Below the pieces are notes generated by a model. It was not told the DNA's origin and made no database searches. It was given only the letters and a program-made list of their open reading frames with translations. A stretch of 64,000 nucleotides of DNA from Vicinamibacterales bacterium (GTDB lineage Bacteria; Acidobacteriota; Vicinamibacteria; Vicinamibacterales; JAMQPK01). The stretch is from the NCBI GenBank assembly GCA_963738315.1, contig CAVTVT010000004.1:189043-253042 (forward strand). The letters are read 5' to 3'. Below, piece after piece: positions 271 to 31,724 of this stretch (positions are counted from its first letter, which is position 1; each line of letters opens with the position of its first letter). The translations under genes and the position numbers were made by a program.

Positions 271-297
271 GTGGCGGAGAGGGTGGGATTCGAACCC
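271..297. repeat. attL-type direct repeat (tRNA-Ser 3' stub, not a full tRNA)
   Basis: Identical to 15493-15519. The sequence beyond 297 cannot form the T-stem or the rest of a tRNA. Confidence 0.8.
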
Positions 298-309
298 TAG
301 CAGCTCCTG

Positions 310-334
310 TAGAATCTGTAACTTACAGATTCTA
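310..334. repeat. Perfect 25-bp AT-rich palindrome tagaatctgtaa-c-ttacagattcta
   Basis: 12-bp arms are exact reverse complements around a single central c. It lies 13 nt inside attL. Confidence 0.9.
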
Positions 335-560
335 AATTGCCGACGATGCCAGGAATGCCAGCGTTGCCGTGGGGCCTTGCTCGTTTTTACCCGATGGAGC
401 CGCTCTTGGTAGAATGCCGGCTGCTTGCTCAAAAAAGATTCTCGACGGCCAGGTGCGACCGCGATCGGAGTCCGAGCGACTCGAACTTGAGGGCGTCATC
501 CGGCCACCGGGCGATACGGCGGTTCTCAGCATCCAGCTGAAGGAAATTCACCCGTCGGAC

Positions 561-3515
561 CTAGGCCGGCGCCAACATTGCGACAACGTCCGCGCAGGCA
601 AGATTGGCCCGCTGCAACTTTTCTGGGGCGACCTCCCGTACATGAGCAATCTCGTTTCGGACCGGAGTTATTTGATCGATGGCGCTCTGCAGCCTCCTCT
701 TGGCCTCCGCGTCGCCGCCGAACCTAGCGCGGGCATCCTGCCAGACATCGGGTTTGAAGAGAAGCGCTGGCAGCTGTGCCAGATAAAGATAATCGACAAC
801 ACCGAGACCATCTGCACCGGCCGGCCGATTCCGAGCTGCACGGGCCAACACGTCTCGCTCGCGAGCGTCGAGTGCGCCTTCGATGGCCGCCGCCGCACTG
901 TCCCCAAAACGCTCGCGATAAACGTCTCGAACGATGGCACGGAGCCTCAGCTCTACATCACCAATCCGCTGCCACACAACTTCGGCTCCTGGCAGGAACC
1001 AGGGCGGCAGGAGGGGCGACGCGCTGGCTTCTCCGCCAAGTTTCCGAAACGCGATGCGAATGATCTCGGCCATGCGCGGGCGGCGCGCGGCCAGAAACTC
1101 TTCGTAGCTCATCGATTCCCAAGCGGGTGGCAGCGCGTGCTCCGCGCACATCCTGCCCCACAGGTCGTCGCTGATCTCGAACTTCGCGCGTAAACGGGGA
1201 ACGTATGTTGCGGGGCTCTGGCTTCCCATCGAGCTATTGTCGTACCAACCGACATCAGCGAGGTTCGCAACTTGATTCACCTTCCTCCGCTCAGTGATCC
1301 CGTGCCCATGCAGCCACGCCTTCGGAAACAGGTGATGCATTTCACTCGCCGCGCGCCCGCCCCCGCCTGGAGCTGCGAGCAGATTTCGCAGTGGTTGATC
1401 GCCGAACAACGCCTTGGCGCCGAGGACGACTTGGGCGGCTCGGAAGGCCAGCGCGGCAGGGGCGCGCCCGCGTTGGGTGTCGAGCGCAGACAGAAGAGTC
1501 TGGTTCCAATAGTCGTTCGTCAAGACATCGCCAAGCATGTCGTCCAGAGTCTGCACGAATGCCGTCGGGTCGTCCTTCGACGCGTCGCGCACTCGCCCGA
1601 GATCTTCTTCGTACTTCGTCTCAGACGACCCCGAATAGCGGGCCGTCAAAAGCGTTCCGAAGATCCAGCGGCACACACTCTCTTCCAACCGCTGCCGCTG
1701 GACATTAGAGGTCGTCCCCATGACGTAAAACGCGTAGGCGTTCGTAACGGCGTTCGTTGATGCCACGAGGCCGGGGCTGACGAAGCCCGCAAGCATGACG
1801 CGCAGCATGTAGTCTCGCCAGCGCGTCTCATTGAGGCACTGATCGACCGCCTGATCGAGCACCTTCAAGCGCTCGACTCGTCCCGCAGGATCAGGATCTC
1901 CAGTAACCGGATCAATCCCGCGTAAGTACTTGTAGATGGACGACATTCGCGCCCGCTGAAATCCGACCGCGCATGCCGTGCGTAGGATCTGCTGCGTATC
2001 GACAGGCACGATTGCATTCGTCGACATCGCGCGTGCGCCGGCCTCAATTCGATCACGCAACTCACCATGGAACACGCTCAGCAGGGTAAGCACGAAGTCC
2101 GCCTGGCCAAGGCGCGTACCCTGGCTATTGATGCGGACGAAAATCTCCGCGACATCCTCTTCGCTAATCTCTTCCGCAGTTGCGGTCTTGCGGATTTCGA
2201 CCGTGGGAAATCTGTAGTCCGCGATACCTTTAGCGCGCTCGAGATTCACATACATCGCATCTCTGTAGGCGTCATCGATGACACGACCCCGTTCTTCAAG
2301 CGCCTTAACCATGTCTTTGCGTATCTGAGAGTTTGTTCTAGTACCTCGCCAGAGCTCGGTCACATTTGGCAAGAACTCCGGATCCTTTCTGATGGCGGCG
2401 TCGCACACTTCGAAACGTCCATCCCGGGGTCGAAACGCGATGGAGATGACCCGCTTCTCTCCGTCCTTGTCCTGGATCTCAACGCCTCGCATCACCGCAA
2501 AGAGCGATGTCAGTCGCTGTTGACCGTCGATGACCAGAGTCGTGGCGCGGAGGGCACGATTGGACGCGCCAAGCGCGCGGGCCTCCCGCTCATCCGTTGT
2601 GTACCAGAGCACCAGTGTCCCGACCGGAAACCCGATGAACAGCGAATCCAGGAGCTTCCGGACCTTGGCGTCTTCCCACACGAATGGACGCTGCAGGTCC
2701 GGCAGCGCAATGACGCCGCGGCTGGGATCGATCTCTTCAATCAGAGCCCCGACAGCCCTTTGTCCCAACTCGAAAATTGCGGAGCGACCACATTCTTTGG
2801 GCTCGCGCGACAGCTCGGGTGCATCGTCATCAACTTCCGGTTCGTCGACCTCCTCCGCCGCTTGCCTCGGTTCTGGCTGAGGCAGCTCCCTTCCGACCAC
2901 CTTCGACAGATAGGTGACTACCTCAGGCGCGTGGTCGTCCAAGTCAACGTCTCTGCGTACCCGCGCAATCGCCGCGTCAACGAACTTGGCAAACGGATCC
3001 TTCAACAAGCCCAAATGCGCTGAGACTCGATCTGGCCGAAGGGACAAATAGAGGCCGCCTGCAACCAGCTTCCACGGCTCCTCGTCTTCGCTGCCCACAC
3101 CGAGCAGCGATGATGTCTCTGGAGAAAGTGGGCCGAGCACGCTGACACCGAAGTCATTCGGCTTGATCTGCAACGCCAGCATGCGGCCGGCTTTCAGCTC
3201 AAACCCGCGGCGCGTCTCACTGAACCGCCACGCGTCGCTCCGCTCCTCGTCAACGTTCTCGACTGCATAGGCAACAAACTCCAGCACGGCAGCCCGGATT
3301 GACGGCTCGGGAAGGGCCCGTTCGATCTTTCGTTTGATCCGGGCTTCAATGATCTCTGGATCGGCGTCCGTCGGGTCGTCGTCGTCGTTGAACCTTAGCC
3401 TCAGTGCTGCTGCTTTCGGGCCTATCGACATGCCACGCCTCCTCCCATCCGTCAATGGCCTCCAAGTCTTTCGTCGTAATCTCCAGGGGATGCGCCGCAA
3501 GGAATTCGCGACCAC
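561..3515 (-). CDS. GmrSD-family type IV restriction-like protein (DUF262 + DUF1524/His-Me finger) with extra C-terminal HEPN domain and ~270-aa N-terminal extension
   Basis: 984-aa ORF. DUF262 motifs DLQRPFVW and VIDGQQRLTSL. His-Me-like HHLFPKAWL...NQVANL. C-terminal Rx4H motif RNEIAH (Swt1-like HEPN pattern). The true start may be an internal Met (MSIGPK...). Confidence 0.75.
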   Translation of the reverse strand: MVANSLRRIPWRLRRKTWRPLTDGRRRGMSIGPKAAALRLRFNDDDDPTDADPEIIEARIKRKIERALPEPSIRAAVLEFVAYAVENVDEERSDAWRFSETRRGFELKAGRMLALQIKPNDFGVSVLGPLSPETSSLLGVGSEDEEPWKLVAGGLYLSLRPDRVSAHLGLLKDPFAKFVDAAIARVRRDVDLDDHAPEVVTYLSKVVGRELPQPEPRQAAEEVDEPEVDDDAPELSREPKECGRSAIFELGQRAVGALIEEIDPSRGVIALPDLQRPFVWEDAKVRKLLDSLFIGFPVGTLVLWYTTDEREARALGASNRALRATTLVIDGQQRLTSLFAVMRGVEIQDKDGEKRVISIAFRPRDGRFEVCDAAIRKDPEFLPNVTELWRGTRTNSQIRKDMVKALEERGRVIDDAYRDAMYVNLERAKGIADYRFPTVEIRKTATAEEISEEDVAEIFVRINSQGTRLGQADFVLTLLSVFHGELRDRIEAGARAMSTNAIVPVDTQQILRTACAVGFQRARMSSIYKYLRGIDPVTGDPDPAGRVERLKVLDQAVDQCLNETRWRDYMLRVMLAGFVSPGLVASTNAVTNAYAFYVMGTTSNVQRQRLEESVCRWIFGTLLTARYSGSSETKYEEDLGRVRDASKDDPTAFVQTLDDMLGDVLTNDYWNQTLLSALDTQRGRAPAALAFRAAQVVLGAKALFGDQPLRNLLAAPGGGGRAASEMHHLFPKAWLHGHGITERRKVNQVANLADVGWYDNSSMGSQSPATYVPRLRAKFEISDDLWGRMCAEHALPPAWESMSYEEFLAARRPRMAEIIRIAFRKLGGEASASPLLPPWFLPGAEVVWQRIGDVELRLRAIVRDVYRERFGDSAAAAIEGALDARERDVLARAARNRPAGADGLGVVDYLYLAQLPALLFKPDVWQDARARFGGDAEAKRRLQSAIDQITPVRNEIAHVREVAPEKLQRANLACADVVAMLAPA

Positions 3516-3766
3516 GTTCGGTGACGCCGGTACTGCCTGGGCGCCACCTTCTCGATCAGTCCGCCCTTGGTGAGAAACGTCATGGCCCAGCCCACACGGT
3601 TACGGACGTAGGTCGACTTGCCGCTGGGAATTCGCACCTGGCGATCTTCTGCAGAAAGCCCGAAATGCAGAGCCATCGACTCAGTGGCCGAGACTCGCGT
3701 AACCGGCGCGTCAACCGACAGCGCCAGAATTGGCCTTAACATGGCATCGAGTTTGGGAACATTCAT
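3452..3766 (-). CDS. Mrr_N-type winged-helix DNA-binding domain protein (reading frame apparently broken near 3525)
   Basis: 104-aa ORF. The stretch LHFGLSAEDRQVRIPSGKSTYVRNRVGWAMTFLTKGGLIE fits the Mrr N-terminal domain pattern. After ...APRQYR the expected continuation VTERGREFLAAHPLEITTKDLEAIDGW is readable only in another frame. The ORF overlaps the 5' end of the 984-aa ORF. Confidence 0.55.
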   Translation of the reverse strand: MNVPKLDAMLRPILALSVDAPVTRVSATESMALHFGLSAEDRQVRIPSGKSTYVRNRVGWAMTFLTKGGLIEKVAPRQYRRHRTWSRIPCGASPGDYDERLGGH

Positions 3767-3869
3767 GTGTTCGCCATCCTTAGAATAGGCGTGGCAAGGT
3801 TTGCCAGAAACTTACTCGCCGGCTCAAGCCCGTCACGGTCAACGCATCCCTCGGCCGTGTGCGCGCGAC

Positions 3870-4082
3870 CTACAAGAACCACCAGCGAAGGAGGCTGATC
3901 GACGTCGCCGAGGCGCCCGTGTGTCCGGGGCGGCGCCAAGCGAACACCTCGCGGACCTTCGCGACGAGAGGTGGTAGCCGCTCGTAAAAGGTCTCGCGGA
4001 GCGCCTCGTCAGCCGGGAACCATCGATGGTCGGGCACCAACTCGGCGTAGGACGATTTCGAAAAGTCGGGGTGCAGGGCCAT
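3870..4082 (-). pseudogene. 5' stub (70 codons) of an SF2 helicase / type III Res-like restriction subunit gene
   Basis: RWFPADEALRE...LPPLVAKVREVFAWRRPGHTGASATSISLLRWWF resembles the conserved N-terminus of large restriction-associated helicases. The ORF stops after WWFL and no helicase motifs follow in any frame. Confidence 0.45.
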
Positions 4083-4260
4083 CGTCGTGACCGCGATTCT
4101 AGCGGAAGGTAGCCAGTAGGTGTGTCAGCCGGGGTTCGACCGCACGGCCCCCACCGCGCGGCGCGTAGGCGGCGTCACGAAGCTGCTTCGCCCTCCCGTA
4201 CGTCGTCCTCACCTCATCAAAACGGCGCAGCGCTCTGGAGCGCCAGGATCCGGCTAAACC

Positions 4261-4299
4261 CTGAAAACAAACGGGGCGCTATAGAGCGCTCTATAGCGC
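4261..4299 (-). terminator. Candidate intrinsic terminator for minus-strand transcripts
   Basis: The 24-bp perfect palindrome gcgctatagagcgctctatagcgc (4276-4299) is followed on the minus strand by cccgTTTGTTTTcag. It lies about 400 nt downstream of the hsdR stop. Confidence 0.4.
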
Positions 4300-4315
4300 T
4301 CTACAGCGCTCCCAG
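4276..4315. repeat. Four tandem 10-bp units each containing (A/G)GCGCT
   Basis: ggcgctatag / agcgctctat / agcgctctac / agcgctccca, with a further cagcgctctggagcgcc copy near 4228-4244. Confidence 0.8.
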
Positions 4316-4704
4316 CGGGGGTGACGTGTCTCATGCTTGCCGATGCCGCAGGCATCGATCTTCGCCTTCGCACGTTCCTGCCATCTGGAGCCTGACGGTG
4401 ACTTACTTCGTCACTCGAATGTGGCCGCTGAACGCTAACCGGACGCCGCCGACGCCGTCATCGCAATCGATCCACCGAACGTCACATCGACCGTGTCGAT
4501 AGTGGCGTTCTCCACGTCACGAAATCACCTGTGCACCCACGCGGCGAGTTGCAGTGTCCGGTGCCACCAATTTGTTCCTGGTAGATCGGCCGTCGGCGTC
4601 AGGAAATCGATGGATTATTGCCGTGACCCGAGTCCATGTGTTCTGAGAACGAAGGGTGGGATTGAAATTCTGGCGCCCGGTGTGCCGAACCACCTCACGC
4701 GGTG

Positions 4705-7700
4705 CTACTGCGGCGCAGACTCGGGCGAGTACGTGAGGCCAAACACTGTGTCGGTCAGCCAGCGCTTGAACGACTCGTTGTCCATGAACTGTTTGAACAG
4801 CTCCGTGTCATCCTTCAGAACCGCCGTCATCACGCGCGCCAGCGCCTTGTCGTGCTCGATTCTGGCGTTCTGCTTGTCGGAGTTCTTGATTGCGTTCTGA
4901 TATGCCTTGTCGGCAGCCACTCGGTTCGGGATGTCCTCGGTGATCAGCTTGTGCACCCGATCGCCGTCGGTCCACGTGATGTTCCCGAACTGGTCATTGA
5001 AGGTCTTGATGATGTTCGACAGCCGGTCCAGTTCCGGTTCCGGCTTTCGACCGCCGCCTGTGGTGGGCACCGGTTCGATTGACGCGTCCTCGTCCGGCAG
5101 CTGGATCCGCCGCGCGGCTTGCTTCTCCACGCGATAACTGTCCATGTCGATGGCGTCGAGAATGCCCTTGGAAAGGTCCTCGTCGATCGGTGCGGGCAGC
5201 TTGGAGATCAGGAAGTTCAGGAAGATCGAGAGCTTCTCCCACTCGGCATTCGTATACGGGAGGATTGACGCGAGGAAACCGTAGGCGCGGACGAACGCCT
5301 TGGCCTTGCCCTTGAAATCTACCTGCCCATCCTCGCGGAGTTGCGCCTTGTACACGGCGACACAGGCATCGAGAATCGGGTCGAGCTTGTCGCGGTCTGA
5401 CCCTCCGAGGTACAGCCCTACGAGCTCGTCCACCTGGGTGTGGGCGTACACCTCATACCCGTCGAGCGCCGCCTGCAGGTCGTGCAGCTTGTTCGGATCG
5501 GTCTCCTCGCTCAGAATCGTCGTTCGGTAGTAGTCGGCGAACGCCGCCTGGATGGTGTCGGTGTCGTTCATGAAGTCCAGGACGAAGACATCGTGCTTCT
5601 GCGGGTGGGCGCGGTTGAGGCGCGAGAGGGTCTGGACGGCCTTGATGCCGGAGAGCACCTTGTCCACGTACATCGTGTGTAGTAGCGGCTCGTCGTAGCC
5701 AGTCTGGAACTTATCGGCGCAGATCAGGAAGCGGTACGGATCTTCCTGAATCTTGTCCGCGATCTGGCTGGACGGAAACCCGTTCAGCGACGCCTCGGTC
5801 ATCTTGGCGCCGCCGTACTCGTGTTCGCCCGAGAAGGCCACGATGGGGCGATAGGGGCTCTTGCGTTCCACGAGGTAATCGCGGAACGCATGATAGTACT
5901 GGATGGCGCGCTCGATGCCGCTTGTCACCACCATCGCCCGCGCCTGCCCGCCGATCTTGTTGAGCGCCAGGACCTGCTCGTGGAAATGGTCGACCATGAT
6001 TTCCGCCTTGAGACGGATGGCATGATCGTGGCTCTCAACGTACCGACGCAACTTCTTGGTCGCGCGCTTCGTATCGAACTCGGGGTCGCTCTGGACGGTC
6101 TTGACCAGCCGGTAGTGACTGCCAATCGGCGTGTATTGCTTCAGCACGTCCAGGATGAAGCCTTCTTGGATGGCCTGCTTCATCGTGTAGCTGTGGAAGG
6201 GCTCGTGGCGCACCTTTCCGTCTATCGGGGGCAAAGGCCGGCCGAAGATCTCGAGTGTCTTGTTCTTGGGAGTGGCGGTGAAAGCAAAGTAGCTCGCGTT
6301 CGGTAGGAGCTTCCGCGCTTCCATGATGCGGTTGACACGGTCCTCCGTCGTTTCGTCGTCTTCTTCCGCTCCTGCGACGGACAACGCCATGCTGATAGCG
6401 GCCGAGGTCTGACCGCCCTGGCTCGAATGCGCCTCGTCGATGATGATCGCGAAGCGGCGGCTGCGTTGCTCGTTGCCGATTTCGTCCAGGATGAACGGAA
6501 ACTTCTGGACCGTCGAAATGATGATCTTCTTGCCGCTCTCAATGAACTTGCGGAGGTCGCCCGAGTGCTCGGCGTGGCCAACCGTCGCACCCACCTGCGC
6601 GAATTGCTTGATCGTGTCGCGAATCTGCTTGTCCAGGATGCGACGGTCGGTGACGACGATGATCGAGTCGAAGACCGAGGCATCGTCTTTGCGGAGGCCG
6701 ATGAGCTGATGTGCGAGCCAGGCGATGGAGTTCGATTTGCCGCTACCGGCGGAGTGCTGAATCAGATAACGCTGGCCGGCGCCCCGCTGTTGCGACATCT
6801 GCGAGCAGCCGGTGCACCACGTCGAGCTGGTGGTACCGCGGCCAGATCTGGACGGCCTTCTTCTTGCCAGTTTTGTCGTCCTTCGTTTCGACAACCTGCG
6901 CGTAGTTCTCGAGGATGTCGGTCAGGCCCTCCCGGGTGAGCAGGCGCTTCCACAGGTAGTCGGTCTTCAGGCCATCGGGGTTCGGCGGGTTGCCGGCGCC
7001 ATCGTTCCAACCAAGGTTGAACGGCAGGAACCACGAGCTCTTGCCTTTCAGGTGCGTGCAAAACCGCACCTCGTGGTCATCGACGGCGAAATGAACAATG
7101 CATCGCCCGAACTCGAAGAGCTTCTCGCGCGGGTCGCGGTCGCGCTTGTACTGCTCCACCGCGTCGTCCACCGTTTGCTTCGTCAGGCTGTTCTTCAGCT
7201 CGAAGGTCGCGATCGGCAGGCCATTGATGAAGAGGCCGAGGTCAAGCGCCCGTTGAGTCTCGTTGCGGCTGTAACGGAGTTGTCTCGCGACGGAGAAGCG
7301 ATTTTGGGCGAAGCGCTCAACGGCGACTGCGTTACCTGGTGAGGGGGTTCCGTAGAACAGCTCCACATGATGCGGACCGTCTTTGATCCCCTTGCGCAGA
7401 ACGTCAATCACGCCCCGTCTGCTGATCTCGCCCTGCAGCCGCGCCAGGAACTTCCGTCGGGACGGGCCATCCTCTGAGAGGTTGAGGCCGTCGAACGCAT
7501 CTGGCTGGGTCTCGATCAGGAAGGCCAGGAGTTGAACGAGATCGACCGTGTACTCCCTGTCGTAATCGTTCGGATTGCCGCAGAGCCAACCTGCGCCACC
7601 GACCGCGACGGAGGTCTCGCTCTCCACATCAGGAGAGATCGGGACCGGATCGCAAACGCCGCCTGTGAGCGCAACACAAATGAGTTGCTCCAGGCCGCGT

Positions 7701-7720
7701 TCGCTGGTGTCAGTGGGCAT
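4705..7720 (-). CDS. hsdR: Type I restriction enzyme R subunit (HsdR), frame broken at the C4 run 6782-6785
   Basis: ORFs 6743..7720 and 4705..6894 join as ...HRLLADVATAG/AGQRYLIQHSAGSGKSNSIAWL (Walker A). N-terminal PD-(D/E)xK nuclease motif LDLGLFINGLPIATFELK and QYKRDR. DEAH-like IIIDEAH. Long HsdR-type C-terminal domain. Confidence 0.85.
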
Positions 7721-8765
7721 CTGTGAGTGGTTTTATCCATCCCCGCGCGGTGAGGACGCCGAGCGCAAGTCCGACCTGTCGAGGCGAGAATTGTTTCTTC
7801 CTTTCGCCCCAAGCGTAGACAGCGGCCGTCACCTCCGCATCGGTTCGCGCTGACGTGCGCGTCGACACCCAATGGACCGTCGACAAGAGCTCCAGCCCGA
7901 ACGGAGACTCGAAACCCTGAACAAGGTCCGCGACGCGGTCGAAGCGAGCGTGCGTGTCGGCGTGCCGGGCGAGAAAGTCTTCGGCCTCATCGACAGCGCC
8001 AGGAACCAACGTCAACTCCTTGTCTGGAGCATCTCCTCCGTCGGCGTAACCCGCTACGTAATATCCTTCGATCTCCTTGAGGACGTGGCGAAGATTCTCA
8101 GCGTACGGACCGTAAGGGGCCGCTGCGAAGCGAAGCCGCAAGGGTTCGCCAGCCTCCTGCATGAAGTACATCAGTTTGTGGACCTCGAGCAGCGTCACGA
8201 ACGGATCCAGAAGGCCACCGAGATACCGACGCACCAATCCCACGAGCGCTGCGCGGCCAGGAGTCATCGTCGGCACCTTGCCGGTGTTTCTGGCCGGCGT
8301 CGAAGATGGCGAACTGTGAGGCTCGAACACTGTCACGTGCACGTCAGGGAGCGCACCCAGAGTCGCTTCGATTCGCGGTCGTACGTCAGACCAGTTCAGG
8401 CCTCCCAGCCCACTGCCGAGTGGTGGAACGGCGATCGAGTGAATTCCTCGGGCGCGGATCTCCCGCACGAGATCGACCAACCCTGCATCGATGTCCTCAA
8501 TCCGGCTCTTGCCGCGCCAGTGCCGCTTCGTCGGAAAGTTGATGATGTACTTCGGATCAGACATGAAGCCCGTTTCGAAAACGAACATCTTACCGGGCTG
8601 CACCTCGCCTCGTACGCACGCCGCCTCGTACGCCTTGAAGTTCGCCGGGAACGCGTTCTTGAACTGCAGCGCCACACCGCGTCCCATGATCCCGACACAG
8701 TTCACGGTATTGACGAGGGCCTCCGCCTGCGTCTTGAGAATGTCTCCGCTCTTGAACTCAATCAT
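7710..8765 (-). CDS. darG: DarG antitoxin (DNA ADP-ribosyl glycohydrolase: macrodomain + C-terminal DarT-binding domain)
   Basis: MIEFKSGDILKTQAEALVNTVNCVGIMGRGVALQFK...INFPTKRHWRGKSRIEDIDAGL...IAVPPLGSGLGGLNW is near-collinear with the DarG macrodomain as I recall it from Mycobacterium. The ORF is open up to 8792. The stop overlaps the hsdR start by 11 nt. Confidence 0.85.
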   Translation of the reverse strand: MIEFKSGDILKTQAEALVNTVNCVGIMGRGVALQFKNAFPANFKAYEAACVRGEVQPGKMFVFETGFMSDPKYIINFPTKRHWRGKSRIEDIDAGLVDLVREIRARGIHSIAVPPLGSGLGGLNWSDVRPRIEATLGALPDVHVTVFEPHSSPSSTPARNTGKVPTMTPGRAALVGLVRRYLGGLLDPFVTLLEVHKLMYFMQEAGEPLRLRFAAAPYGPYAENLRHVLKEIEGYYVAGYADGGDAPDKELTLVPGAVDEAEDFLARHADTHARFDRVADLVQGFESPFGLELLSTVHWVSTRTSARTDAEVTAAVYAWGERKKQFSPRQVGLALGVLTARGWIKPLTDAH

Positions 8766-8779
8766 GTCGGTTGCCCCGG

Positions 8780-9052
8780 TCAATAATACCAATCTGTAAG
8801 GATCTCGACGGGTGGTCTATGGGTCAGCCCACGGAGAGCAGTTGCAACCTGTTGCGCAACCTGTTGTGACCTGACACCGACCCGGCGAACCAGTTCCCAA
8901 GGGAAAGATTCATGCACCAGGAACTCGGCTTGCTTGCCCTCCTTCACGTCGGGCGACCGAAAGTCGTGCGCTTGGACCGCTGGCCAGTTCACCTCATGGA
9001 GGCGGTCGACCTGCGCTCGAAACTGAGCATAGCGTAGTAGTAGTCCTGAAGT
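8780..9052 (-). pseudogene. darT: DarT (DUF4433 DNA ADP-ribosyltransferase) C-terminal remnant, about 70-90 of about 210-230 codons
   Basis: ...RYAQFRAQVDRLHEVNWPAVQAHDFRSPDVKEGKQAEFLVHESFPWELV...PPVEILTDWYY matches the DarT C-terminus, including the catalytic-Glu AEFLV motif and terminal WYY. The frame is closed by TGA at 9053-9055. The only start is a GTG at 8992 overlapping the upstream stop (GTGA). The N-terminal NAD-binding half is absent. Confidence 0.75.
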
Positions 9053-10839
9053 TCATCATCGAATCCATCGAGCGCGATGCTGTTCGCGTCGGACGCCTCA
9101 GCAAAACTCGGACTGTTCGGGTCGAGAACCCCTGCGAAGTACACCCCCAAAAAGTCCCATTCGTCGTGGAGATAGAAGCGCCCATCCTTTTGAACCGCGT
9201 ATCGGCGATAAAGGTAGTCGAACAACTGGGAGGGAAGTTCAAGGCTCTCTGTCACGACACGGAGATCCGCGAGCGATAGCGCCCAAGGATATGCACGGTC
9301 GACAAAAAGACCAAGTGGAGCGAGGCTCGGAAGATTGGCTGCGATGGATGCCCACGCGCCGGTTCCCACCAATGTCACCAAGAACACTTCCGAGATTTCA
9401 GCGCGGCGTACGACAATCTTACGCCCGGTCCTCTTCTCCTCGAACTCGACAGACGCCGCCCCCTGAATGTAATCACGAGCCCGCTTGGCCTGGTCGAAAG
9501 GCTCTAGGATCGCTTTCGCCAGATCGTTAAGGATCGCGGGCACGTCACCCGCCAGTGCGGCGAGCGTTGGGCTCTTCGATTTACATTCGATCAAGATCAA
9601 CTTGTTGTCGTAAACCGCGATCCCATCCAGCTCGAGTCTCTCCTTCTTCGGCCCATAGTAGAGACCCCAACCGCACTCGGCTCTCAGAAGAAGCCGCTCA
9701 AGAGCAGAGACTGCAGATGACTCCAGCCACTCTGCGCGCGCATTGTCATACGTTGTGCGATAGCTCTTGTCTGCAAACAACTTCGTATGAAATGCGTAGA
9801 AGATCGCCTCAGAAAGCCGTGGCGGCACGAACAAGTAGTATCGGTCCCCGAACTTGACGAACGGCGCAAAAGCAAAGGGATTCAGCTCGACCGCGCTCGG
9901 TTCACCGCTGATCTTGTCGCCGGCGACGCTAAGCAGCGTCAAGAACGGCAGAACGCGTTCCGCGGCGACTCGTCCTTCACAACGCCCGCGCAGCTCGTCT
10001 TCGGTGAAGCTGATGATGGTGGGCGCCTTGAAGAACAACCATATGATGCTTAGGGTCTTTGCGAATTGAGATCCACCTGTGATCAGACTGCCATCTGCAA
10101 CAGCCTCGCGAATCACAACGGGAAACCCCTCAAGATGATGCGTCACGGACTCATGATTGTGTTCGACATCCTTTTCAATTTCGCGCGAGCGGGCTCGAAG
10201 ATCGGCTATTTTGTCGGATACGCCTTCGCCGATGATCTTGGCAATTTCGAACGCGTCTTGTACCGGCAGGCCAAGGTTGGTTAGGCACCACGCCTCATGA
10301 GGTGAATAGAGCTCGACCGCGAGCCCTTCGATCTCGTTGGCATAACCGAGGCCGCGAACGAACACCGCCTCGGTCTGGATCCTCGCTCGAAGCTCGTTCT
10401 GCTGCGCGTCAAGGGCCGGATCTCGGCCCATGAGCGAGAAGACAACGGTCCTGAAGTAATCGTCCAGCAACCGCTCGAGCGCGCTTAGAAATCCTCCGTC
10501 GATGACAGCTGGCCGCTCCGGTGAAGCGATCTTGCGCGATAGCGCCAACCACGCAAGCCACTCGATTTTGGCCTGCCATCGAGCCCTCTCATTCCGATCG
10601 TTCGCCGCGTCAATCGCGTGCGTTTGATACAGCACGGTCAGATGCGACAGCAGCTCAATTGGATCTACGGTCCGAAGCAGCGCCTCAATTTCGGAGACGA
10701 TTCCCGGTAGCCGATCACGCTGCTCCTGCGCGAGAGCGTTCACATCGAGAGTTCGTCGTCGGTCATTCTCGTTGCTCACGTCTGCTCGCCAGCTGTACAT
10801 GCGCGACGTTCCCGCAACTTCATCACGAAGAGCGCCCAA
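8989..10839 (-). CDS. Uncharacterised 596-616-aa protein with PD-(D/E)xK nuclease-like core
   Basis: Long ORF with ordinary composition. Candidate nuclease motif ELDGIAVYDNKLILIECKSK (D...ExK). A GTG at 10779 would overlap the upstream stop as GTGA. Confidence 0.6.
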   Translation of the reverse strand: MGALRDEVAGTSRMYSWRADVSNENDRRRTLDVNALAQEQRDRLPGIVSEIEALLRTVDPIELLSHLTVLYQTHAIDAANDRNERARWQAKIEWLAWLALSRKIASPERPAVIDGGFLSALERLLDDYFRTVVFSLMGRDPALDAQQNELRARIQTEAVFVRGLGYANEIEGLAVELYSPHEAWCLTNLGLPVQDAFEIAKIIGEGVSDKIADLRARSREIEKDVEHNHESVTHHLEGFPVVIREAVADGSLITGGSQFAKTLSIIWLFFKAPTIISFTEDELRGRCEGRVAAERVLPFLTLLSVAGDKISGEPSAVELNPFAFAPFVKFGDRYYLFVPPRLSEAIFYAFHTKLFADKSYRTTYDNARAEWLESSAVSALERLLLRAECGWGLYYGPKKERLELDGIAVYDNKLILIECKSKSPTLAALAGDVPAILNDLAKAILEPFDQAKRARDYIQGAASVEFEEKRTGRKIVVRRAEISEVFLVTLVGTGAWASIAANLPSLAPLGLFVDRAYPWALSLADLRVVTESLELPSQLFDYLYRRYAVQKDGRFYLHDEWDFLGVYFAGVLDPNSPSFAEASDANSIALDGFDDELQDYYYAMLSFERRSTASMR

Positions 10840-12140
10840 GGATCAGTCTCCTGGTCGGCCGGCATGAAGGAATTCCATTCCTCCGAGAAGTCGGCGACGT
10901 CTGAGCTGGATCGCCAACCCTTATGCGGCGCGACAACCTTCCCGGCATAGCCGAGTCGCATCAGCACGCGCCGAAACAAGAAGAGCCGCCATTTGTCAAA
11001 GAGCAGACGGAATTCCGTGCTGTCCTTCGTCGGCAGCTCCCCACCGTGCATGACGGCGTTTCTCAAGAGCCGTATGGTATGTCGCGCAACGTAGTGCTTC
11101 GGAACATCCCAACCGAGATGCTTCCGGGCCGCGCCAATCAGTTCGAGGAAGTCTCGCTTCGCCACCCACTCTTCAGGCTGCCCCTGTTCGACAAGGCAGT
11201 TCCTCATGAAGAACTCGAGCGCCATGATCAGTGAGGCGAATTTCTGCTCCAGATAGGGCGCGTCCTCAAGCGACCCGCAATGGCTGGCCAGCCGTCGCCA
11301 TGCGGGATGGGCGCGCTTCATCTTCACGTATTCGTTAAAGGCCACGCGGAAGAACTCGGGAATATGGATGTCGTCGACGATGCCGTTGCTCCGGTAGTGC
11401 GATGTTACGGGCTGCGGAAGCACGCGGCGGACGATCGCACCGTCACCGTCCAGCAAGTCGACCATGGGCACGCAGACGCCCGCACCCGCTGCGAAGGTAC
11501 ACAGGCCCGCGACGTCGGTGCTGAACGCCAGCACCTGATCGTCGGATTCGCCGGGGGCCAAATCGACGCTAAATTCCGTAAGGGAGGCCGCCTGCAGAAT
11601 CCCGGCCTTGACGAGGGGCAGGATATCCTTGCGGAGGCGGTGATGGCGAAACGCGACGCGGCGATCGTCGACATCGACGCTCAGGGGCGTGCCGATTCTC
11701 GTGAAGCCCCTGTCTTCCGTGATTGCGTCCCCACACCTATAGTCGAAGTTGTTGAGCAGAACCGTGGCCGTGGCCGCCGGACGCGCAGGACCGTACTGCA
11801 CACGCGCCGGGCAGTTGACAGGGGAAATCAGGCTCCATCCGCCGGGCCCCGAAGCGCCGTCGGTTTGACCATGGACATAGCATCGTGGGCACTCCATGCG
11901 GAAGGGACCGGAGTCGCTACCGCCGTCAATGACTAGGTCGGTCCCGAAATCCTGCGACGTTTGGTCGGTGGCTGTGTGGAAGGCGACGATGGCCTGCCCG
12001 TCAGCGGGCAACAGGAACTCAGCGAAACCGGAATAGACGGTCTCCCCCATGCGAAACGTGGCCGAGCCGCGATGGGACGACAGCCGGGCGTACTCCCGAT
12101 GCGCGGTGACAGGCGGATACGTAATCGGTTCGATGGTCAT
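10776..12140 (-). CDS. ApeA-like protein: beta-rich N-terminal domain + C-terminal HEPN
   Basis: 454-aa ORF. C-terminal Rx4H motif LLRNAVMHGGELP embedded in helical sequence. The architecture resembles Apea-like HEPN defence proteins. Confidence 0.55.
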   Translation of the reverse strand: MTIEPITYPPVTAHREYARLSSHRGSATFRMGETVYSGFAEFLLPADGQAIVAFHTATDQTSQDFGTDLVIDGGSDSGPFRMECPRCYVHGQTDGASGPGGWSLISPVNCPARVQYGPARPAATATVLLNNFDYRCGDAITEDRGFTRIGTPLSVDVDDRRVAFRHHRLRKDILPLVKAGILQAASLTEFSVDLAPGESDDQVLAFSTDVAGLCTFAAGAGVCVPMVDLLDGDGAIVRRVLPQPVTSHYRSNGIVDDIHIPEFFRVAFNEYVKMKRAHPAWRRLASHCGSLEDAPYLEQKFASLIMALEFFMRNCLVEQGQPEEWVAKRDFLELIGAARKHLGWDVPKHYVARHTIRLLRNAVMHGGELPTKDSTEFRLLFDKWRLFLFRRVLMRLGYAGKVVAPHKGWRSSSDVADFSEEWNSFMPADQETDPWALFVMKLRERRACTAGEQT

Positions 12141-12180
12141 GGGCCTACCCTAGATGTCCCTCTCCTGTGTACTTGGCAGC

Positions 12181-13286
12181 CTACGCGGGGGCGTTCGGCC
12201 CGCGTGGGCCGCCACCCAGTCCGCGCAACGTGGCTCGAAACGCGTCGAGTTCCGCAATGACGGCTTCGACGTACGCGGAACCATCGGCTGAGCGGAGGAA
12301 TTCCATTTGCGCCTTCCAGCCTGCCGCATGTGCGCCCGTTGTCCACATGACTGCGGAAACCGCGTCCATGAGCGATTGGTAGCGCGCCTGCGTCATCGTT
12401 TTGCGAAGAGCAGGACGACTTTCATTGCTAAACTTCAGCACGTACCGAGACATCACTTGAAGCCTCACAAGCTGTGGCGGATGTGTTCGCCGATACACCG
12501 TGTCCCGCGTGAGCATTTCAGGCTCGCGAAGAAAAGTGAAGCCCGCCTGTGCGACGATGAAACAAGCGAAGACAACGTCGTCTTGAACCTCAGATGGTGA
12601 GTTTTCGATATTCAGAACCTCCGAGGCAGCCTGTCGTCCACTCGCCGTGATCCAATGCGCAAGAGCCAAGTAAGCCGCCCAACCGTCGGCGTCAAGCTCC
12701 CGAGCTTGTCTTCTCAAGTTGCCAGTCAGTGCACCACCGATGATTTCCTCGACGTCGAATGCTCCATCCAAGTGTCCATGCACGTGATGGGCGTATTCGT
12801 GTGAGATGACAAAACCCAGCAACATCCAGAAGAGCAACGTGCGCAGCACATCGCGATCACTCGCTAGTGACAAGCCGATGCCGGATACGACCGCGTCGGA
12901 TGCGGCAAGCGCCCATGCAACGTTCACCACGTCGAAGACGAGGGGAACGGTGACCCGATGAACGAGTGGTTCGCGTCTTTGAACGCCAGCGCATTCGACC
13001 GGTCAGAATCGATGAAGTCCAAGTAGAGCGGCGAGTGTGGGGCATCTCCGTTGATGTTCTGTCCTTCGACTGCCAATGCACCATTGAACGACTGGCGAAT
13101 CTCCACCAATTTGTCGATGAACGTGCTGAGCGACGAATCTCGTTGTCGAAGCTCCTCGAGATCGGCGATGCCGCGGTAGTCAAAATTGTTCCGACTTTTG
13201 ATCGCCACGTCGAACGCAATTTTTTCCGCAGACGGCACCATACAGTTTCTCGGTTTCCGAGCACCTCTTGGAGTGTAACGCTGCAC
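12181..13286 (-). CDS. HExxH zinc metallopeptidase, ImmA/IrrE-like (frame broken at 12954-12956)
   Basis: ORFs 12924..13286 and 12181..12930 join as ...NALAFKDANHSFIG/VTVPLVFDVVNVAW.... Motif SHEYAHHVHGH followed by ELDADGWAAY. The likely start is the internal Met at 13241. Confidence 0.55.
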
Positions 13287-13685
13287 CTAGCCGCCATACG
13301 CGACTGGCCCCTAGGGCCACGTGAAGATGGCTCCTGTTTACCGCGATCGGTTCAAGCCGCTTGCCCGAGATCGAGCGGCCTGTTGTTCAGCGCAGCGTCT
13401 TCCCGAGAGGCCAGCCGCCTCGTCCTCGAGGAGGTTTGCGCGCGACCTCAAGGCTGAGCCGAAGCTGTCGATGCCTGATGGACGCTTTCAGAACTAGAAC
13501 CGCACGCTCAAGAGGACGTCAGTCTCGCCTAGCCGTTCTCCACCTCATGTCTCTGCCTTCGCCTTTACGCTCACCGGCACCGCCGCTTAACGGCTTCCGC
13601 CGTCTCGGATCGCGCCAGTCTGGAAAGCGCCTGTCACGCCCTCGCCATTGGCTCCAGCCTACGGCGGCACCGGCTCGCTACCTCT

Positions 13686-13731
13686 CGCGGTTACGGGCTC
13701 CTTTGGCTGCGAAGGAGCCGCGATAACCGCG
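13686..13731. repeat. Nested inverted repeat (compound hairpin) just upstream of the Xis-like ORF
   Basis: cgcggtta(13686-93)/taaccgcg(13724-31) enclose ggctcctt(13696-703)/aaggagcc(13712-19). Confidence 0.7.
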
Positions 13732-13741
13732 GGCGAGAAGA

Positions 13742-14086
13742 ATGGCGACAGACAGCATGACGGTGAAGATCACCCCGAACGGCCGCGGCAACCCGATGAC
13801 GTCCACAGAGCGCCGGCGTTTCAGCGATCAAGAGATCGCGCAAGCCGCAACGCCGACGAGAATCACGGAATCGTCCGCGCCGGAGGACCCGGCATTCGAG
13901 CGTCACTATCGGATCGGAGAACTCGCCGCGAAGTGGCAGCTTGGCCGGGAGACAGTACGCCTGCTGGTGAAAGACGAACGCGGCGTCATCAAGATTCGCC
14001 TCGGACGCAAGAAGGCGCACACGATCTACTCCGTGCCGGAATCCGTGGCCGTACGAATCCACACGCGCCTGCTCAACAGCCGCTAA
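13742..14086 (+). CDS. Helix-turn-helix DNA-binding protein, excisionase/AlpA-like
   Basis: HYRIGELAAKWQLGRETVRLLVKDERGVIKI...YSVPESVAVRIH fits an HTH_17/excisionase-like pattern. It is adjacent to and convergent with the integrase. The true start may be an internal Met. Confidence 0.5.
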   Translation: MATDSMTVKITPNGRGNPMTSTERRRFSDQEIAQAATPTRITESSAPEDPAFERHYRIGELAAKWQLGRETVRLLVKDERGVIKIRLGRKKAHTIYSVPESVAVRIHTRLLNSR

Positions 14087-14134
14087 CGGCGGCCGCCGCG
14101 CAGACTGACGCGTCTCCTGCGTGAGCGACTCGGG

Positions 14135-15407
14135 TTATTTGCGACCCCCGGAGATTCCCACCAGCTTCGGCTTCTCTCTGTAGGCTTTCTTGAACATTCT
14201 GGTCAGGCGTTCCTGCCGCTCAGGGACCCAGGCGCTGTAATGAAGCGCGACCGTTTTCGGATCGTCGCCGAGCGCCATCGCCACATCGTCAATGGAGTTT
14301 CCATCCTGGAGGAGACGGCGCGCAAAGGTGTGACGGAAACGGTGTGGGGTCGGCTCTTGTTCGAAGGGGCCAGCGGCTTCGAACGCCTGAGCAAGACGCC
14401 GCCGCCAGACGTTCGTGACGGTCTCAAGGCGTGTTGATTGGCCGATGATGAACGGCCGCGACCCATGCAGTTTGGCGCGTGCGGTCAATCGGTCGCGAAC
14501 ACGGTCGGGAAGCCACGCAAACACATGATGGCCATTCTTCTGCGCTCGGATCATCACGTTATTGCCCTGCAATCGGCTCATGTCGAACAGCGTCGCATCT
14601 GAGATGCGGAAGCCCGTGTGCACCATCAGCTCGATCAAGTCTTTCAAGTCTTCGCCGGTCCACGAGCCCGCTCCCTGCGCGTTCTTGTACTCGCAGCCGA
14701 CGTGGCCGGGACTGCGGTCTCGCTGACGCATCGGACGCGGCGGGTTGTCGCACGCCCTCATGATGCGGCTCAGTTCCTTATCGCTGAACGGCATCTTGTC
14801 GGCGCTCTTACTGGAGCCGACCGGAGGTTTGATGTCGGAGCTGATCGGCGTTTCGGACATCCACTTCCGGTTGACGGCGAAGCGGAAGAAGGCGCGCAGG
14901 ACGCCGAGGCGGGTTCCTTTCGTGCGCGGACCGAGCTTCAGTCCCGCGTAGAACTGGTCGGCATCGGCCGGCGTGAACTGGTCGATCATCACGTAGCCGC
15001 GACCGTCGGCATATGCCGTCAACTGTTTCGTGAACGTCCGATACTTGCGGAGGGTCGCGGGGGCAATCTGGCGCGCTCTCGCGATTCGCGATGAAGATGC
15101 TGGTGGCTTCCTCGATGGTGATGCGGGCCGGCGTCGCAGGCGCGTCCGGTGCCGGCACCGCGGGTGCCGGTTGATCGCTCCAGTTGCCGACGGCTTCGAT
15201 GGCTGCCGCGTAGGCGCGGGCTTCGTCCCAGGTCGTCGCGCCGGTGCGTTTGCGGCTGAAGCGTCCGGCAAGTGTGCCGGAGACGAAAATGACGCACGCG
15301 CAACGTTTCCAGCCACGGGTACGCTCGGCGAATTCACCCGAGTTCGAATCCTCCGCGCGGCCGGCTTCGCAGTCTTTCCGATGGCGGCGGTAGAGGTTCA
15401 GCGCCAC
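14135..15407 (-). CDS. int: Tyrosine recombinase / phage-type integrase (frame broken near 15065-15075)
   Basis: ORFs 14808..15407 and 14135..15337 join as ...IFIANRESA/RQIAPATLRKYRTFTKQL. C-terminal catalytic motifs HRFRHTFARRLL and LHYSAW. The start lies 87 nt from the tRNA-Ser 3' end. Confidence 0.85.
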
Positions 15408-15492
15408 GGACGGATTCTAGCACCATTGCCCGCTATTACCCGCTGGAAGCGGCTAATTTCAGGTAAATCAGCGTTTTTACTAATGTTTTGAT

Positions 15493-15519
15493 GTGGCGGA
15501 GAGGGTGGGATTCGAACCC
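15493..15519. repeat. attR-type direct repeat inside tRNA-Ser
   Basis: Identical to 271-297. Confidence 0.8.
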
Positions 15520-15582
15520 ACGTGCCCTTTCGGACAAGACGCTTTCGAGGCGCCCCCGTTACGACCACTTCGGTACCTCTCC
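15494..15582 (-). tRNA. tRNA-Ser (anticodon CGA), CCA encoded
   Basis: Reverse complement GGAGAGG...GGCGC-CTCGAAA-GCGTC...long variable arm...GTGGGTTCGAATCCCAC-CCTCTCC-G-CCA folds as a class II tRNA. Confidence 0.9.
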
Positions 15583-15659
15583 GCAGAGGATCGGGGCAGA
15601 GCGAACACACTATTTTAGCGCATCCGCCCCTCGCCGCCGTCCGGCGGCCGCGTCCGGCG

Positions 15660-27600: not shown

Positions 27601-27979
27601 CGTTCTCCGTCGTGATGAGCGGCGCCACACCGGTCACCATCGTCGTCTCCGACACCGTGCCGATCTCGAGGCCGAAATCGACCCGCAGCGTCTGCTCGAC
27701 GTGCAGCTCGGCCGGCAGCGTGCTCGTCTTGAACCCCTGCAGCTCGGCTTTCACCGAATAATTGCCGGGCGGCAGCGCCGGAAAGCTGTAGATGCCGGAC
27801 GCATTGGTCTGCACCCCGCGCGCGGCGTTGGTGCCGTTGTTCGTGACCGTGACCGTGACGCCGGGGATGACCGCCCCCGACGAGTCCTTCACCGCACCCG
27901 TGATGGTCCCGAGCGTCTGCGCGACGCCGGGCGCGCAGAGCAGCAGCCAGACGAACCCCGTAAGCAGGCCTCGATACAT
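24628..27979 (-). CDS. TonB-dependent receptor with CarboxypepD_reg domain, tandem paralogue A (frame broken at 27119-27122)
   Basis: MYRGLLTGFVWLLLCAPGVAQTLGTITGAVKDSSGAVIPGVTVTV.... ORFs join as ...PFKWNQY/GYTAGGPIWTNKLFF.... C-terminal ...VGLKFVF. Confidence 0.85.
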
Positions 27980-28381
27980 GACGATCTCCTTCTGAGGGAA
28001 ACGGCGCAACCCGGGCGAGAGCCGACGCGATATCCACACGGCAGCGTGCCTCCTACCGGAAACTGGGATATCTCACGACTGAAAAGGTGGCTGATTCTGC
28101 TGGTGTGCTGCTCTGGCGAACATCCTGTCCGGGCTGTAATTGCGCTCCAGACAATCAGGACGCACGAAGAGCGCCCTCCGGGAGTTCCGTCCCCGGCGGA
28201 AATCCCCGTAAGGAACCGCTTGCCTGAGCGGCGTCGAGGCGGGAGCGAAGAAGAATTCCTGGAGGAAGCCGCCCCCAGGCATCATGTCCAGTCGGGATGG
28301 AGCGCCCGTGGAGCTGAACGAGAAGCGGCCGGCGCTTGCCTCAGCGGCAATCGCCGGCCGTGGTCAGAGCGAGGAAGCTGA

Positions 28382-31300: not shown

Positions 31301-31724
31301 GCAGCTCCACGATGCGCCGGTTCTCGATGACGGTGCCGACCGTGGCGTTCTCCGTTGTGATGAGCGGCGCCACACCGGTGACCATCGTGGTCTCCGACAC
31401 CGTGCCGATCTCGAGGCCGAAGTCCACCCGCAGCGTCTGCTCGACGTGCAGCTCGGCCGGCAGCGTGCTCGTCTTGAATCCCTGCAGCTCGGCCTTCACC
31501 GAGTAGTTGCCGGGAGGCAGTGCCGGAAAGCTGTAGATACCCGACGCATTGGTCTGCACGTCGCGCGCGGCATTCATGCCGGTGTTGGTCACCGTGACCG
31601 TCACACCGGGGATCACCGCCCCGGACGAGTCTTTCACCACACCCGTGATGGTCCCGAGGGTCTGCGCAAAGGCAGGCGCGCAGAGCAGGAGCCAGACGAA
31701 CCCCGCAAACAGGCTTCGACGCAT
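28382..31724 (-). CDS. TonB-dependent receptor with CarboxypepD_reg domain, tandem paralogue B (frame broken at 30864-30867)
   Basis: MRRSLFAGFVWLLLCAPAFAQTLGTITGVVKDSSGAVIPGVTVTV.... It has the same junction sequence and the same extra base as paralogue A. Confidence 0.85.

Follow-up and report, generated by a model that had tools for sequence, protein, structure and literature searches.

Genomic islands inserted at tRNA genes by a tyrosine integrase are known from P4-like and pathogenicity-island style integration. The window analysed here, 64,000 nucleotides from a Vicinamibacterales bacterium (C4:189043-253042 in an assembly of 4.27 Mb and four contigs), opens with a block that closely resembles such elements; coordinates without a contig label refer to the window. 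We are confident that the block is a genomic island of 15,195 bp (298-15492), inserted by a tyrosine integrase at the 3′ end of a tRNA-Ser(CGA) gene, with a cargo that has since been reshuffled by deletions. A sequence-only reading of the window had described a site-specifically integrated defence island, and the att repeats, the integrase, an Xis-like protein, the low G+C content and the defence-type cargo bear this out. The cargo includes darG and hsdR, for which there is a second kind of precedent. DarTG2 is flanked by hsdS and hsdR within an island of enteropathogenic Escherichia coli (EPEC; PMC12255303), and DarTG has been found as an insert within type I restriction–modification (RM) operons (PMC5179494).

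Repeats, tRNA target and integrase

The two ends of the element are made up of the following features:

228-270, no strand: native sequence normally found 3′ of tRNA-Ser(CGA), now 15.2 kb away from it (matches in genomes G027, G021 and G014)
271-297, no strand: distal att repeat (attR-type), exact 27-mer, probably the displaced original tRNA 3′ end; no tRNA gene by ARAGORN
298-400, forward: distal arm of the island, with candidate Int/Xis binding sites read from the sequence
13742-14086, forward: Xis-like small DNA-binding protein, convergent with int; conserved core ∼ 13889-14086
14135-15407, reverse: tyrosine integrase, ∼ 419 aa, Phage_integrase and SAM-like domains; frame broken at ∼ 15072
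15408-15492, forward: proximal arm with the second copy of a 13-mer, read in the same way
15493-15519, no strand: proximal att repeat, exact 27-mer, within the tRNA gene
15494-15582, reverse: intact tRNA-Ser(CGA) (ARAGORN), the integration target

The 27-mer GTGGCGGAGAGGGTGGGATTCGAACCC occurs exactly at 271-297 and 15493-15519, as the sequence-only reading had reported, and these are its only exact copies in the whole 4.27-Mb assembly. Within the window there is no further copy at ≤ 3 mismatches, and none of 100 shuffles gave two matches. A third copy, with two mismatches, is the 3′ end of tRNA-Ser(GGA) (C4:57957-58046); the other tRNA-Ser genes lack the exact 27-mer, which disposes of the objection that it might be common to several of them. 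Both edges of the repeat are sharp (a/t before, t/a after), with identity ending at either side. Since ARAGORN places an intact tRNA-Ser(CGA) at the right copy, the repeat consists of the last 26 nt of the tRNA, including the encoded CCA, plus 1 nt. At the left copy ARAGORN calls no tRNA, in line with the earlier statement that the sequence there cannot complete one. The program reported a second 'cga' tRNA-Ser on contig C2, in sequence without any likeness to a tRNA; with this call judged false, 15494-15582 is the sole credible tRNA-Ser(CGA) gene of the assembly. Direct repeats that copy a tRNA 3′ end, with the intact tRNA at one end, are a mark of tRNA-integrated islands, and the DNA between them spans 298-15492.

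Base composition follows the same borders. Between the repeats the G+C content is 60.4%, against a mean of 67.9% (sd 1.56) for 15.2-kb windows of the genome. This is 4.8 sd below the mean of the 846 windows, only two of which are as low. The tetranucleotide distance (0.294 against a mean of 0.099, sd 0.032) is 6 sd above the mean and is exceeded by a single window out of 846. The island is thus unlike its host genome by both measures, as had been suggested from the lower G+C content alone, and the drop in G+C starts and stops at the two repeats.

The integrase starts with a GTG codon at 15407, 87 nt from the end of the tRNA. Its position beside the tRNA-side repeat is therefore as first described; its reading frame, however, is interrupted at ∼ 15072 in the assembly, by an extra base in GCGCGCC. 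The N-terminal frame (MALNLYRRH...) accounts for only the first ∼ 109 residues and matches no arm-binding domain in Pfam; a different frame (14138-15397) encodes the SAM-like and catalytic domains. Profile matches are to Phage_integrase (5.5e-13) and to the PHROG 1 integrase (3e-30). By eye, the HxxR motif and the C-terminal Tyr (HRFRHTF, LHY) are common to this integrase and that of genome G109. Matches at E ≤ 1e-20 occur in 11 of 151 genomes of the order, this genome included. G109 encodes an unbroken 410-aa homologue, 66% identical, at 80 nt from its own tRNA-Ser(CGA); a 57% identical homologue in G070 lies beside tRNA-Ser(GGA), and more distant ones in G032, G025 and G029 lie beside tRNA-Ser(CGA). 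Altogether, tRNA-Ser was found at five of the seven integrase-homologue loci scanned.

The convergent ORF next to int has no match in Pfam, PHROGs or PDB sequences. It is 72% identical to an ORF at the same position after the G109 integrase, and copies of 41-44% identity adjoin two more distant integrases, so that it is kept beside int at three of 11 other loci (within the ∼ 1.5 kb of flank examined at each). Residues 50-114 of its structural model have predicted local distance difference test (pLDDT) values of 80-92. The model aligns to TorI (Z 5.7), Pukovnik Xis (5.2) and RdfS (4.6), and equally well to the N-domains of MerR, Par and BldC proteins (overall Z 4.6-6.4). The predicted fold, a winged helix of the MerR/excisionase type, fits an excisionase and agrees with the Xis-like helix–turn–helix originally proposed; it is the position beside int that points to an excisionase function.

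Candidate sites for these proteins lie in both arms. The distal arm contains a palindrome with 12-bp arms (310-334) and four TGCC motifs (338-341, 347-350, 356-359 and 365-368) with an exact 9-nt period. The 13-mer TTACCCG[AC]TGGA[AG] is found in the same orientation at both ends (387-399 and 15436-15448), the chance expectation for its recurrence being 0.16 in 64 kb. These sites would have roles in Int/Xis action. A stretch of ∼ 120 nt of the distal arm is present twice more in this genome, at C4:62.7 kb and 67.8 kb, downstream of tRNA-Ser(GGA) and preceded each time by a copy of the 3′ end of that tRNA; elsewhere in the order, other genomes contain the arm with 78-83% identity.

That second locus (C4:57957-67844, outside the window) consists of tRNA-Ser(GGA) followed by two more copies of its 3′ end, at ∼ 62.7 and ∼ 67.8 kb. 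Neither of the two segments so delimited contains an integrase; genes for Fic, for a PD-(D/E)xK nuclease with a D12 methylase and for a Ser/Thr kinase lie in the outer one. Both have the look of integrase-less islets, arranged in tandem at what would be a second tRNA-Ser hot spot.

On the left, positions 228-297 align over 71 nt with the tRNA 3′ end and downstream sequence of G027 (89% identity), with shorter matches of the flank in G021 and G014. The ∼ 45 nt beside the left repeat that match the relatives' tRNA-downstream sequence are where displaced native flank would be expected; because the left copy runs into sequence homologous to that downstream of tRNA-Ser(CGA), it cannot be dismissed as a decayed tRNA. 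On the right, the flank is syntenic throughout the genus, in 15 of 20 relatives' loci (relatives being compared at species level only), with matching genes ∼ 2.3-4.3 kb beyond the tRNA. By tblastx, none of the 20 tRNA-Ser(CGA) loci carries island genes, and hence the relatives do not have the same genes at this place without repeats. The genes that follow this tRNA in the relatives are dispersed over the present genome; together with the unmatched left flank, this indicates that the downstream side of tRNA-Ser(CGA) is a variable spot.

Two observations concern the surroundings. The G+C content dips a second time at C4:167-174 kb (the left region examined was 1-270 of the window plus C4:167000-189000), and the island may be at the edge of a larger variable region. 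In G021 and G027, a partial copy of the tRNA 3′ end (20-24 nt) is found ∼ 100 nt past tRNA-Ser(CGA) with no island in between; these copies may be the scar of a lost element.

Cargo genes and the deletion junction

Between the distal arm and the Xis-like ORF we find:

561-3766, reverse: Mrr_N-GmrSD_N (DUF262)-HEPN-like protein (Pfam, PADLOC), in three frames with shifts at ∼ 3535 and 3350-3440
3873-4082, reverse: type III restriction Res stub, the first ∼ 70 codons of a ∼ 904-aa gene, judged by homologue length
4276-4309, reverse: hairpin, terminator-like, with a perfect-looking 15-bp stem (GCGCTGTAGAGCGCTATAGAGCGCTCTATAGCGC)
4705-7720, reverse: hsdR, type I restriction R subunit (HSDR_N, SWI2_SNF2, ResIII and T1R_D3 domains)
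7710-8765, reverse: darG, macrodomain antitoxin, intact but orphan (NCBIfam antitoxin_DarG, PADLOC DarG)
8780-9034, reverse: darT remnant, C-terminal ∼ 85 residues (Pfam DarT and NCBIfam toxin_DarT, partial)
8989-10839, reverse: NERD/Card1-like PD-(D/E)xK nuclease-family protein, 616 aa, lacking ∼ 140 C-terminal residues
10776-12140, reverse: 454-aa protein of an uncharacterised family, intact ORF, with N-terminal β-barrels and a C-terminal HEPN domain in the model
12181-13241, reverse: HExxH zinc-peptidase-like protein, ∼ 355 aa, in two frames, with weak Peptidase_M48 and M78 matches

The DarTG system named by the sequence-only reading is not present as a system, since only the C-terminal part of the toxin gene remains and darG is an orphan. 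The darT remnant covers positions 113-201 of 201 of Pfam DarT and 116-204 of 204 of NCBIfam toxin_DarT, with a score of 89 bits (cut-off 150). The genome has no other DarT match and no full-length DarT; the 24 other genomes of the genus gave none, and no minus-strand frame of ≥ 60 aa upstream of the remnant matches DarT. darG is matched over positions 1-336 of the 338 of NF048014 with 464 bits (cut-off 250), and by PADLOC DarG at 1e-136.

The 616-aa protein has weak matches to Card1_endonuc and CARF_PDDEXK. Its family comprises 2157 representatives at E ≤ 0.001; the homologues carry NERD or Card1, one of them with a SEC-C tail, and the longer well-covered ones measure 608-782 aa, most of them ∼ 720-780 aa. 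The protein matches no PDB sequence, and the plasmid tblastn search returned only matches of 24-27% identity. Homology stops at about residue 604 (...DELQDYYYA), whereas homologues that are 74% and 65% identical run on for ∼ 140 residues. Because this homology ends at ∼ 9027 and the DarT match starts at ∼ 9034, we place a deletion junction at ∼ 9027-9034, with both genes cut.

hsdR overlaps the end of darG and retains all domains of an R subunit, but is split into two frames by one extra base at ∼ 6793. Its DNA is 91% identical to hsdR of G005, with three single-base indels, and 79% identical to that of G024; in each of these genomes hsdR belongs to a locus with hsdM in which other genes are embedded, hsdS being detected in G024 only. 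The assembly as a whole (89% marker completeness) has no match to Methylase_S, a single HSDR_N and, on another contig, two weak N6_Mtase matches (29 and 20 bits), so that HsdR, HsdM and HsdS do not come together as a type I system. darG and hsdR look like the tail of an hsdM-hsdS-darT-darG-hsdR operon. Loss of the N-terminal half of the toxin and of hsdM/hsdS first would be the safe order, both for a toxin–antitoxin pair and for a type I system.

The G005 locus (L015, G005:C3:640000-659999) contains HTH-M78, PIN-like, GmrSD (N and C domains), RAMA, hsdM, unknown genes and hsdR. It is a mobile defence cluster, with a tyrosine integrase ∼ 5 kb away and several split genes.

The leftmost gene is one gene rather than two. 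In G007 the homologue is a single 1154-aa ORF (61% identical) with Mrr_N, GmrSD_N and a weak HEPN_Swt1, and the 'Mrr' ORF and the 984-aa GmrSD_N ORF of the island are accordingly parts of the same gene, with Mrr_N as its N-terminal domain. Pfam matches are to GmrSD_N (4e-28; PF03235, 99 bits against a cut-off of 33) and Mrr_N (2e-13), and PADLOC matches to HEC-05 and PDC-M55C. The His-Me finger domain GmrSD_C (DUF1524) has no Pfam match in either this protein or the G007 homologue; a histidine-rich motif, EMHHLFP, is seen by eye only. We regard the protein as a candidate type IV modification-dependent restriction enzyme.

Upstream of it, the res stub has 1774 homologues, the best of ∼ 902-905 aa, with ResIII and annotated as 'type III restriction enzyme' (≤ 80% identity over 82% of the query). 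It ends in a stop after ∼ 70 residues, where a complete Res would have a ResIII helicase and a nuclease in ∼ 900 aa. Three-frame translation and Pfam reveal no recognisable Mod remnant between hsdR and the stub; this 620-nt non-coding gap is where the hairpin (4276-4309) sits. The restriction genes announced earlier include an hsdR without an HsdS in the genome and a res that is a 70-aa stub.

The 454-aa protein matches nothing in Pfam, PADLOC, NCBIfam, PHROGs or PDB sequences, and nothing in the plasmid tblastn search. It has 99 homologues (38-81% identity), and in 26 aligned sequences the motif R360-N-A-x-x-H365-G is invariant at R360, N361, A362, H365 and G366. Its AlphaFold model has a pLDDT of 86. 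Foldseek found nothing in the PDB at E ≤ 0.001; VIA-align superposed residues 268-400 on HEPN domains, namely those of AbiA (Z 8.6), Csm6 (7.8) and HEPN toxins (7.5-7.7). These alignments, Z 7.4-8.6, are in the middling range (root mean square deviation 3.0-4.3 Å over 106-125 residues), and an Rx4-6H motif within a helical bundle agrees with a HEPN assignment. Residues 12-112 of the model superpose on PilZ barrels at Z 5.6-7.1, which is middling to weak. All 14 loci of the family are in Acidobacteriota or Planctomycetota metagenome-assembled genomes. We considered a conserved two-gene system of the 454-aa and 616-aa proteins and discarded it, since none of the 14 loci has a 616-aa homologue nearby; embedding of the family in type I RM loci was likewise seen in none of 12 loci. 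At these 12 loci the neighbours vary: integrases (three loci), TIR, CHAT, Abi_C, a C-5 methylase, MazF and unrelated genes.

We speculate, with little confidence, that the 454-aa gene may found a new family of stand-alone anti-phage effectors and, separately, that darG has been kept against incoming DarT. In such an effector family, the members may travel alone in integrase-bearing islands of Acidobacteriota and Planctomycetota, and the barrel module could respond to a nucleotide signal or a phage protein by freeing the HEPN nuclease.

The HExxH gene lacks one base from a G run at ∼ 12950. Its homologues are single ORFs of ∼ 350 aa; one of them, P0220, shares 94% and 88% identity with the two frames and continues over the break as ...FIGVTVP.... 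PF10463 is listed among the precomputed domains of 10 of 28 homologues, and hmmscan of P0220 and P0223 at E ≤ 0.01 found nothing. We take PF10463 to be a Lit-type abortive-infection protease (peptidase U49), which our own scan of these two proteins did not match. Searches of PDB sequences with the HExxH, Xis-like and 454-aa-family proteins gave no matches.

The cargo is a mosaic, roughly half of it remnants or orphans. The original description of it as all-defence holds at the level of families, but three genes are truncated and darG and hsdR are orphans. Family membership suggests that any remaining defence may lie with the Mrr_N-GmrSD-HEPN enzyme, the 454-aa HEPN protein and the HExxH protein.

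Integration, decay and alternative readings

The recombination mechanism and the order of deletions that we infer are as follows. A circular element bearing its own 27-bp version of the tRNA 3′ end would have recombined within the 27 bp of identity; the tRNA would have been rebuilt from the element's copy, and the original 3′ end, together with the native sequence that follows it, moved out to the far border (271-297). For excision, the integrase would have to act with the Xis-like winged-helix protein on arm sites in the two ends; as such sites we propose the shared 13-mer and the four phased TGCC repeats. The cargo would have been reshuffled by deletions, either after acquisition or earlier in the lineage of the element. 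One of these probably fused the nuclease gene, without its last ∼ 140 codons, to darT, without its first ∼ 112; presumably the same event removed hsdM-hsdS from a type I RM/DarTG operon, which would have left darG and hsdR as orphans. The type III res gene would have been cut to its 70-codon stub.

Several observations weigh against this account. The empty site foreseen by the sequence-only reading could be traced on the left over the ∼ 45 nt of matched flank, and only these 45 nt back the 'before' state; a two-sided empty site was not found in 40 relatives by DNA search nor at 20 tRNA-Ser(CGA) loci. The 12 kb to the left of the island have matches near tRNA-Ser(CGA) in none of 20 relatives' loci. 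Assembled contigs of other samples contain no credible excision junction, and the second repeat of the G109 island was not found within 40 kb. No related integrase is present at the other arm-bearing sites (in this genome, G031 and G018), so that the arm may be used by some other recombinase or for another purpose. In this assembly, the frame of the integrase is interrupted. Finally, nothing of hsdM or hsdS is left in the island, so the interpretation of darG-hsdR as an operon remnant rests on gene order in other genomes.

One contig, from run X2, does join 298 to 15533. It was rejected as a junction, for it has a side of 26 nt and 16 foreign letters and fits the tRNA-Ser of another organism. 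Words of 6000-15600 were found in 20 runs from 14 studies (soil, groundwater, permafrost and sediment), at shares of 0.13-0.38 with no run reaching half. In the four runs examined, contigs cover the int-Xis module and hsdR, and those of X1 and X2 also cover the 454-aa, 616-aa and HExxH genes at 99% identity; island parts without contig cover in these runs are uninformative. The coverage fits a modular family of elements and is no evidence for a habitat or for excision.

Alternatively, two or more islands could stand in tandem at this tRNA: a newer one (∼ 4680-15492) would have pushed outward an older one without integrase, which would run from 298 to ∼ 4650 and contain GmrSD and the res stub. 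A partial copy of the repeat at 4653-4678, just past the hsdR stop, shares 11 exact nt (AGGGTGGGATT), the 4124-4705 interval is non-coding DNA with a strong hairpin, and tRNA-Ser(GGA) of this genome does bear tandem arrays (repeats at C4:62.7 kb and 67.8 kb). However, an 11-nt match is near chance (by a rough estimate, 0.1-0.2 expected in 32 kb), the sequence flanking 4653-4678 has no similarity to the conserved arm, and no second integrase or remnant of one was found. We therefore rejected 4653-4678 as an internal att remnant and think the tandem arrangement distinctly unlikely. Far less probable still is a duplicate tRNA-Ser gene that has decayed down to the left 27-mer, the low-GC block then being an old variable region. 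The extra partial tRNA 3′ ends ∼ 100 nt downstream in G021 and G027 show that such copies can occur without a large insert, and the left flank lacks synteny to the relatives; yet a decaying tRNA would grade off towards its 5′ side, whereas the left copy is 100% identical over exactly 27 nt and ends sharply. Moreover, the sequence just inside it is a conserved element arm and not tRNA, the composition shifts exactly at the repeats, and an integrase of a tRNA-Ser-associated family stands at the opposite end. Integrase, Xis-like protein and tRNA insertion would also suit a degraded prophage or phage satellite in place of a defence island, but the integrase is the only match in a PHROGs scan of 11 ORFs and Pfam, run on 147 stop-to-stop frames of ≥ 60 aa in six frames, finds no capsid, terminase, primase or replication gene; we give this very little credence.

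A more serious alternative to an island that may still be mobile is a locked relic, in which the single-base shifts are real and the island decays in place with neither excision nor restriction. Five such shifts fall within 15.2 kb (integrase, hsdR, HExxH and two in Mrr_N-GmrSD), whereas rpoB, rpoC, dnaE and uvrA, ∼ 15 kb together, have none. Three further genes are truncated by deletion, beyond any base-calling error, and related contigs from two other metagenomes do not have the additional base at 15072; to judge from record length relative to the span covered, the metagenome contigs are also one base shorter at the hsdR break and one base longer at the HExxH break. These contigs are 94-99% identical, however; they represent other strains and show the ancestral state only. 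The assembly has just 89% marker completeness in its four contigs, and core genes elsewhere in the window are split as well (a secretin, a TonB-dependent receptor and two outer-membrane barrel genes), as is a uvrA paralogue, which falls into three frames (G000:C3:551614-554360). In the HExxH gene the shift comes from a G run that is one G short, as is typical of long-read errors, and hsdR of G005 is broken too, at other positions. The five shifts are not distinguishable from assembly errors, and we lean, without great conviction, towards doubting that they are real. The locked relic is a serious contender that we nevertheless put below an even chance. Whether the island is mobile depends on whether the additional base in the integrase is real.

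The split genes outside the island are these. At 24631-28072 and 28385-31835 (reverse strand) lie tandem CarboxypepD_reg/Plug/OMP_b-brl_4 outer-membrane paralogues with 85% DNA identity, both split in two frames at profile position ∼ 41-43, in a stretch that does not differ between them; a real shift common to both, gene conversion or a systematic error of assembly might account for it. The secretin (RcpA/CpaC-like) of a Tad pilus cluster is split at ∼ 46800, and the TonB-dependent receptor at ∼ 58950-59720.

Comparison with described systems

The locus is an ordinary kind of mobile island and leaves the current understanding of such islands unchanged. It is a clean, well-bounded case of defence-gene turnover in a mobile island from a little-studied soil phylum, the Acidobacteriota. 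A single deletion, mapped to within ∼ 7 nt, appears to have taken the catalytic half of the toxin and stranded both the antitoxin and a restriction subunit; tools in the style of a defence finder would count 'DarTG' or 'type I RM' here, and neither can work. The 454-aa barrel-HEPN family and the Mrr_N-GmrSD-HEPN fusion are leads for anti-phage work, and, to judge by the conserved att arm, tRNA-Ser genes are an insertion hot spot throughout the order.

Compared with the RRDM (RptR-RMS-DarTG-M48) island of EPEC, the order hsdS-darT-darG-hsdR is matched here by ...darT-darG-hsdR with overlapping gene ends. In contrast to RRDM and RM-embedded DarTG, the present island has no rptR, hsdM or hsdS and lacks the first ∼ 112 darT codons; a truncated NERD-type nuclease gene abuts the darT remnant instead. 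No M48 gene follows hsdR, and an HExxH gene is located elsewhere in the island. Unlike those of RRDM, the island genes do not amount to a working RM or toxin–antitoxin system. GmrSD enzymes share the DUF262-type N-domain and the long single chain with the Mrr_N-GmrSD protein, which differs in having an additional N-terminal Mrr_N winged helix, an HEPN-like C-terminus with RNEIAH, a GmrSD_C that Pfam does not detect, and two frameshifts in this assembly. The 454-aa protein resembles HEPN Abi and toxin proteins (the AbiA C-terminal domain 8oz7, Csm6 and HEPN-MNT toxins) in its Rx4H motif and helical domain; compared with these, it has no sequence family match and no conserved partner gene, and its barrel region is only weakly PilZ-like.

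Set against known tRNA islands, the element stands apart in that its integrase has an N-terminus without a Pfam arm-binding match and a broken frame, and in that neither excision nor an empty site was seen. It resembles them in the following: the repeats copy the tRNA 3′ end, the intact tRNA is at the integrase end, a small protein of predicted excisionase fold adjoins the integrase, and DNA of deviant composition carries accessory cargo.

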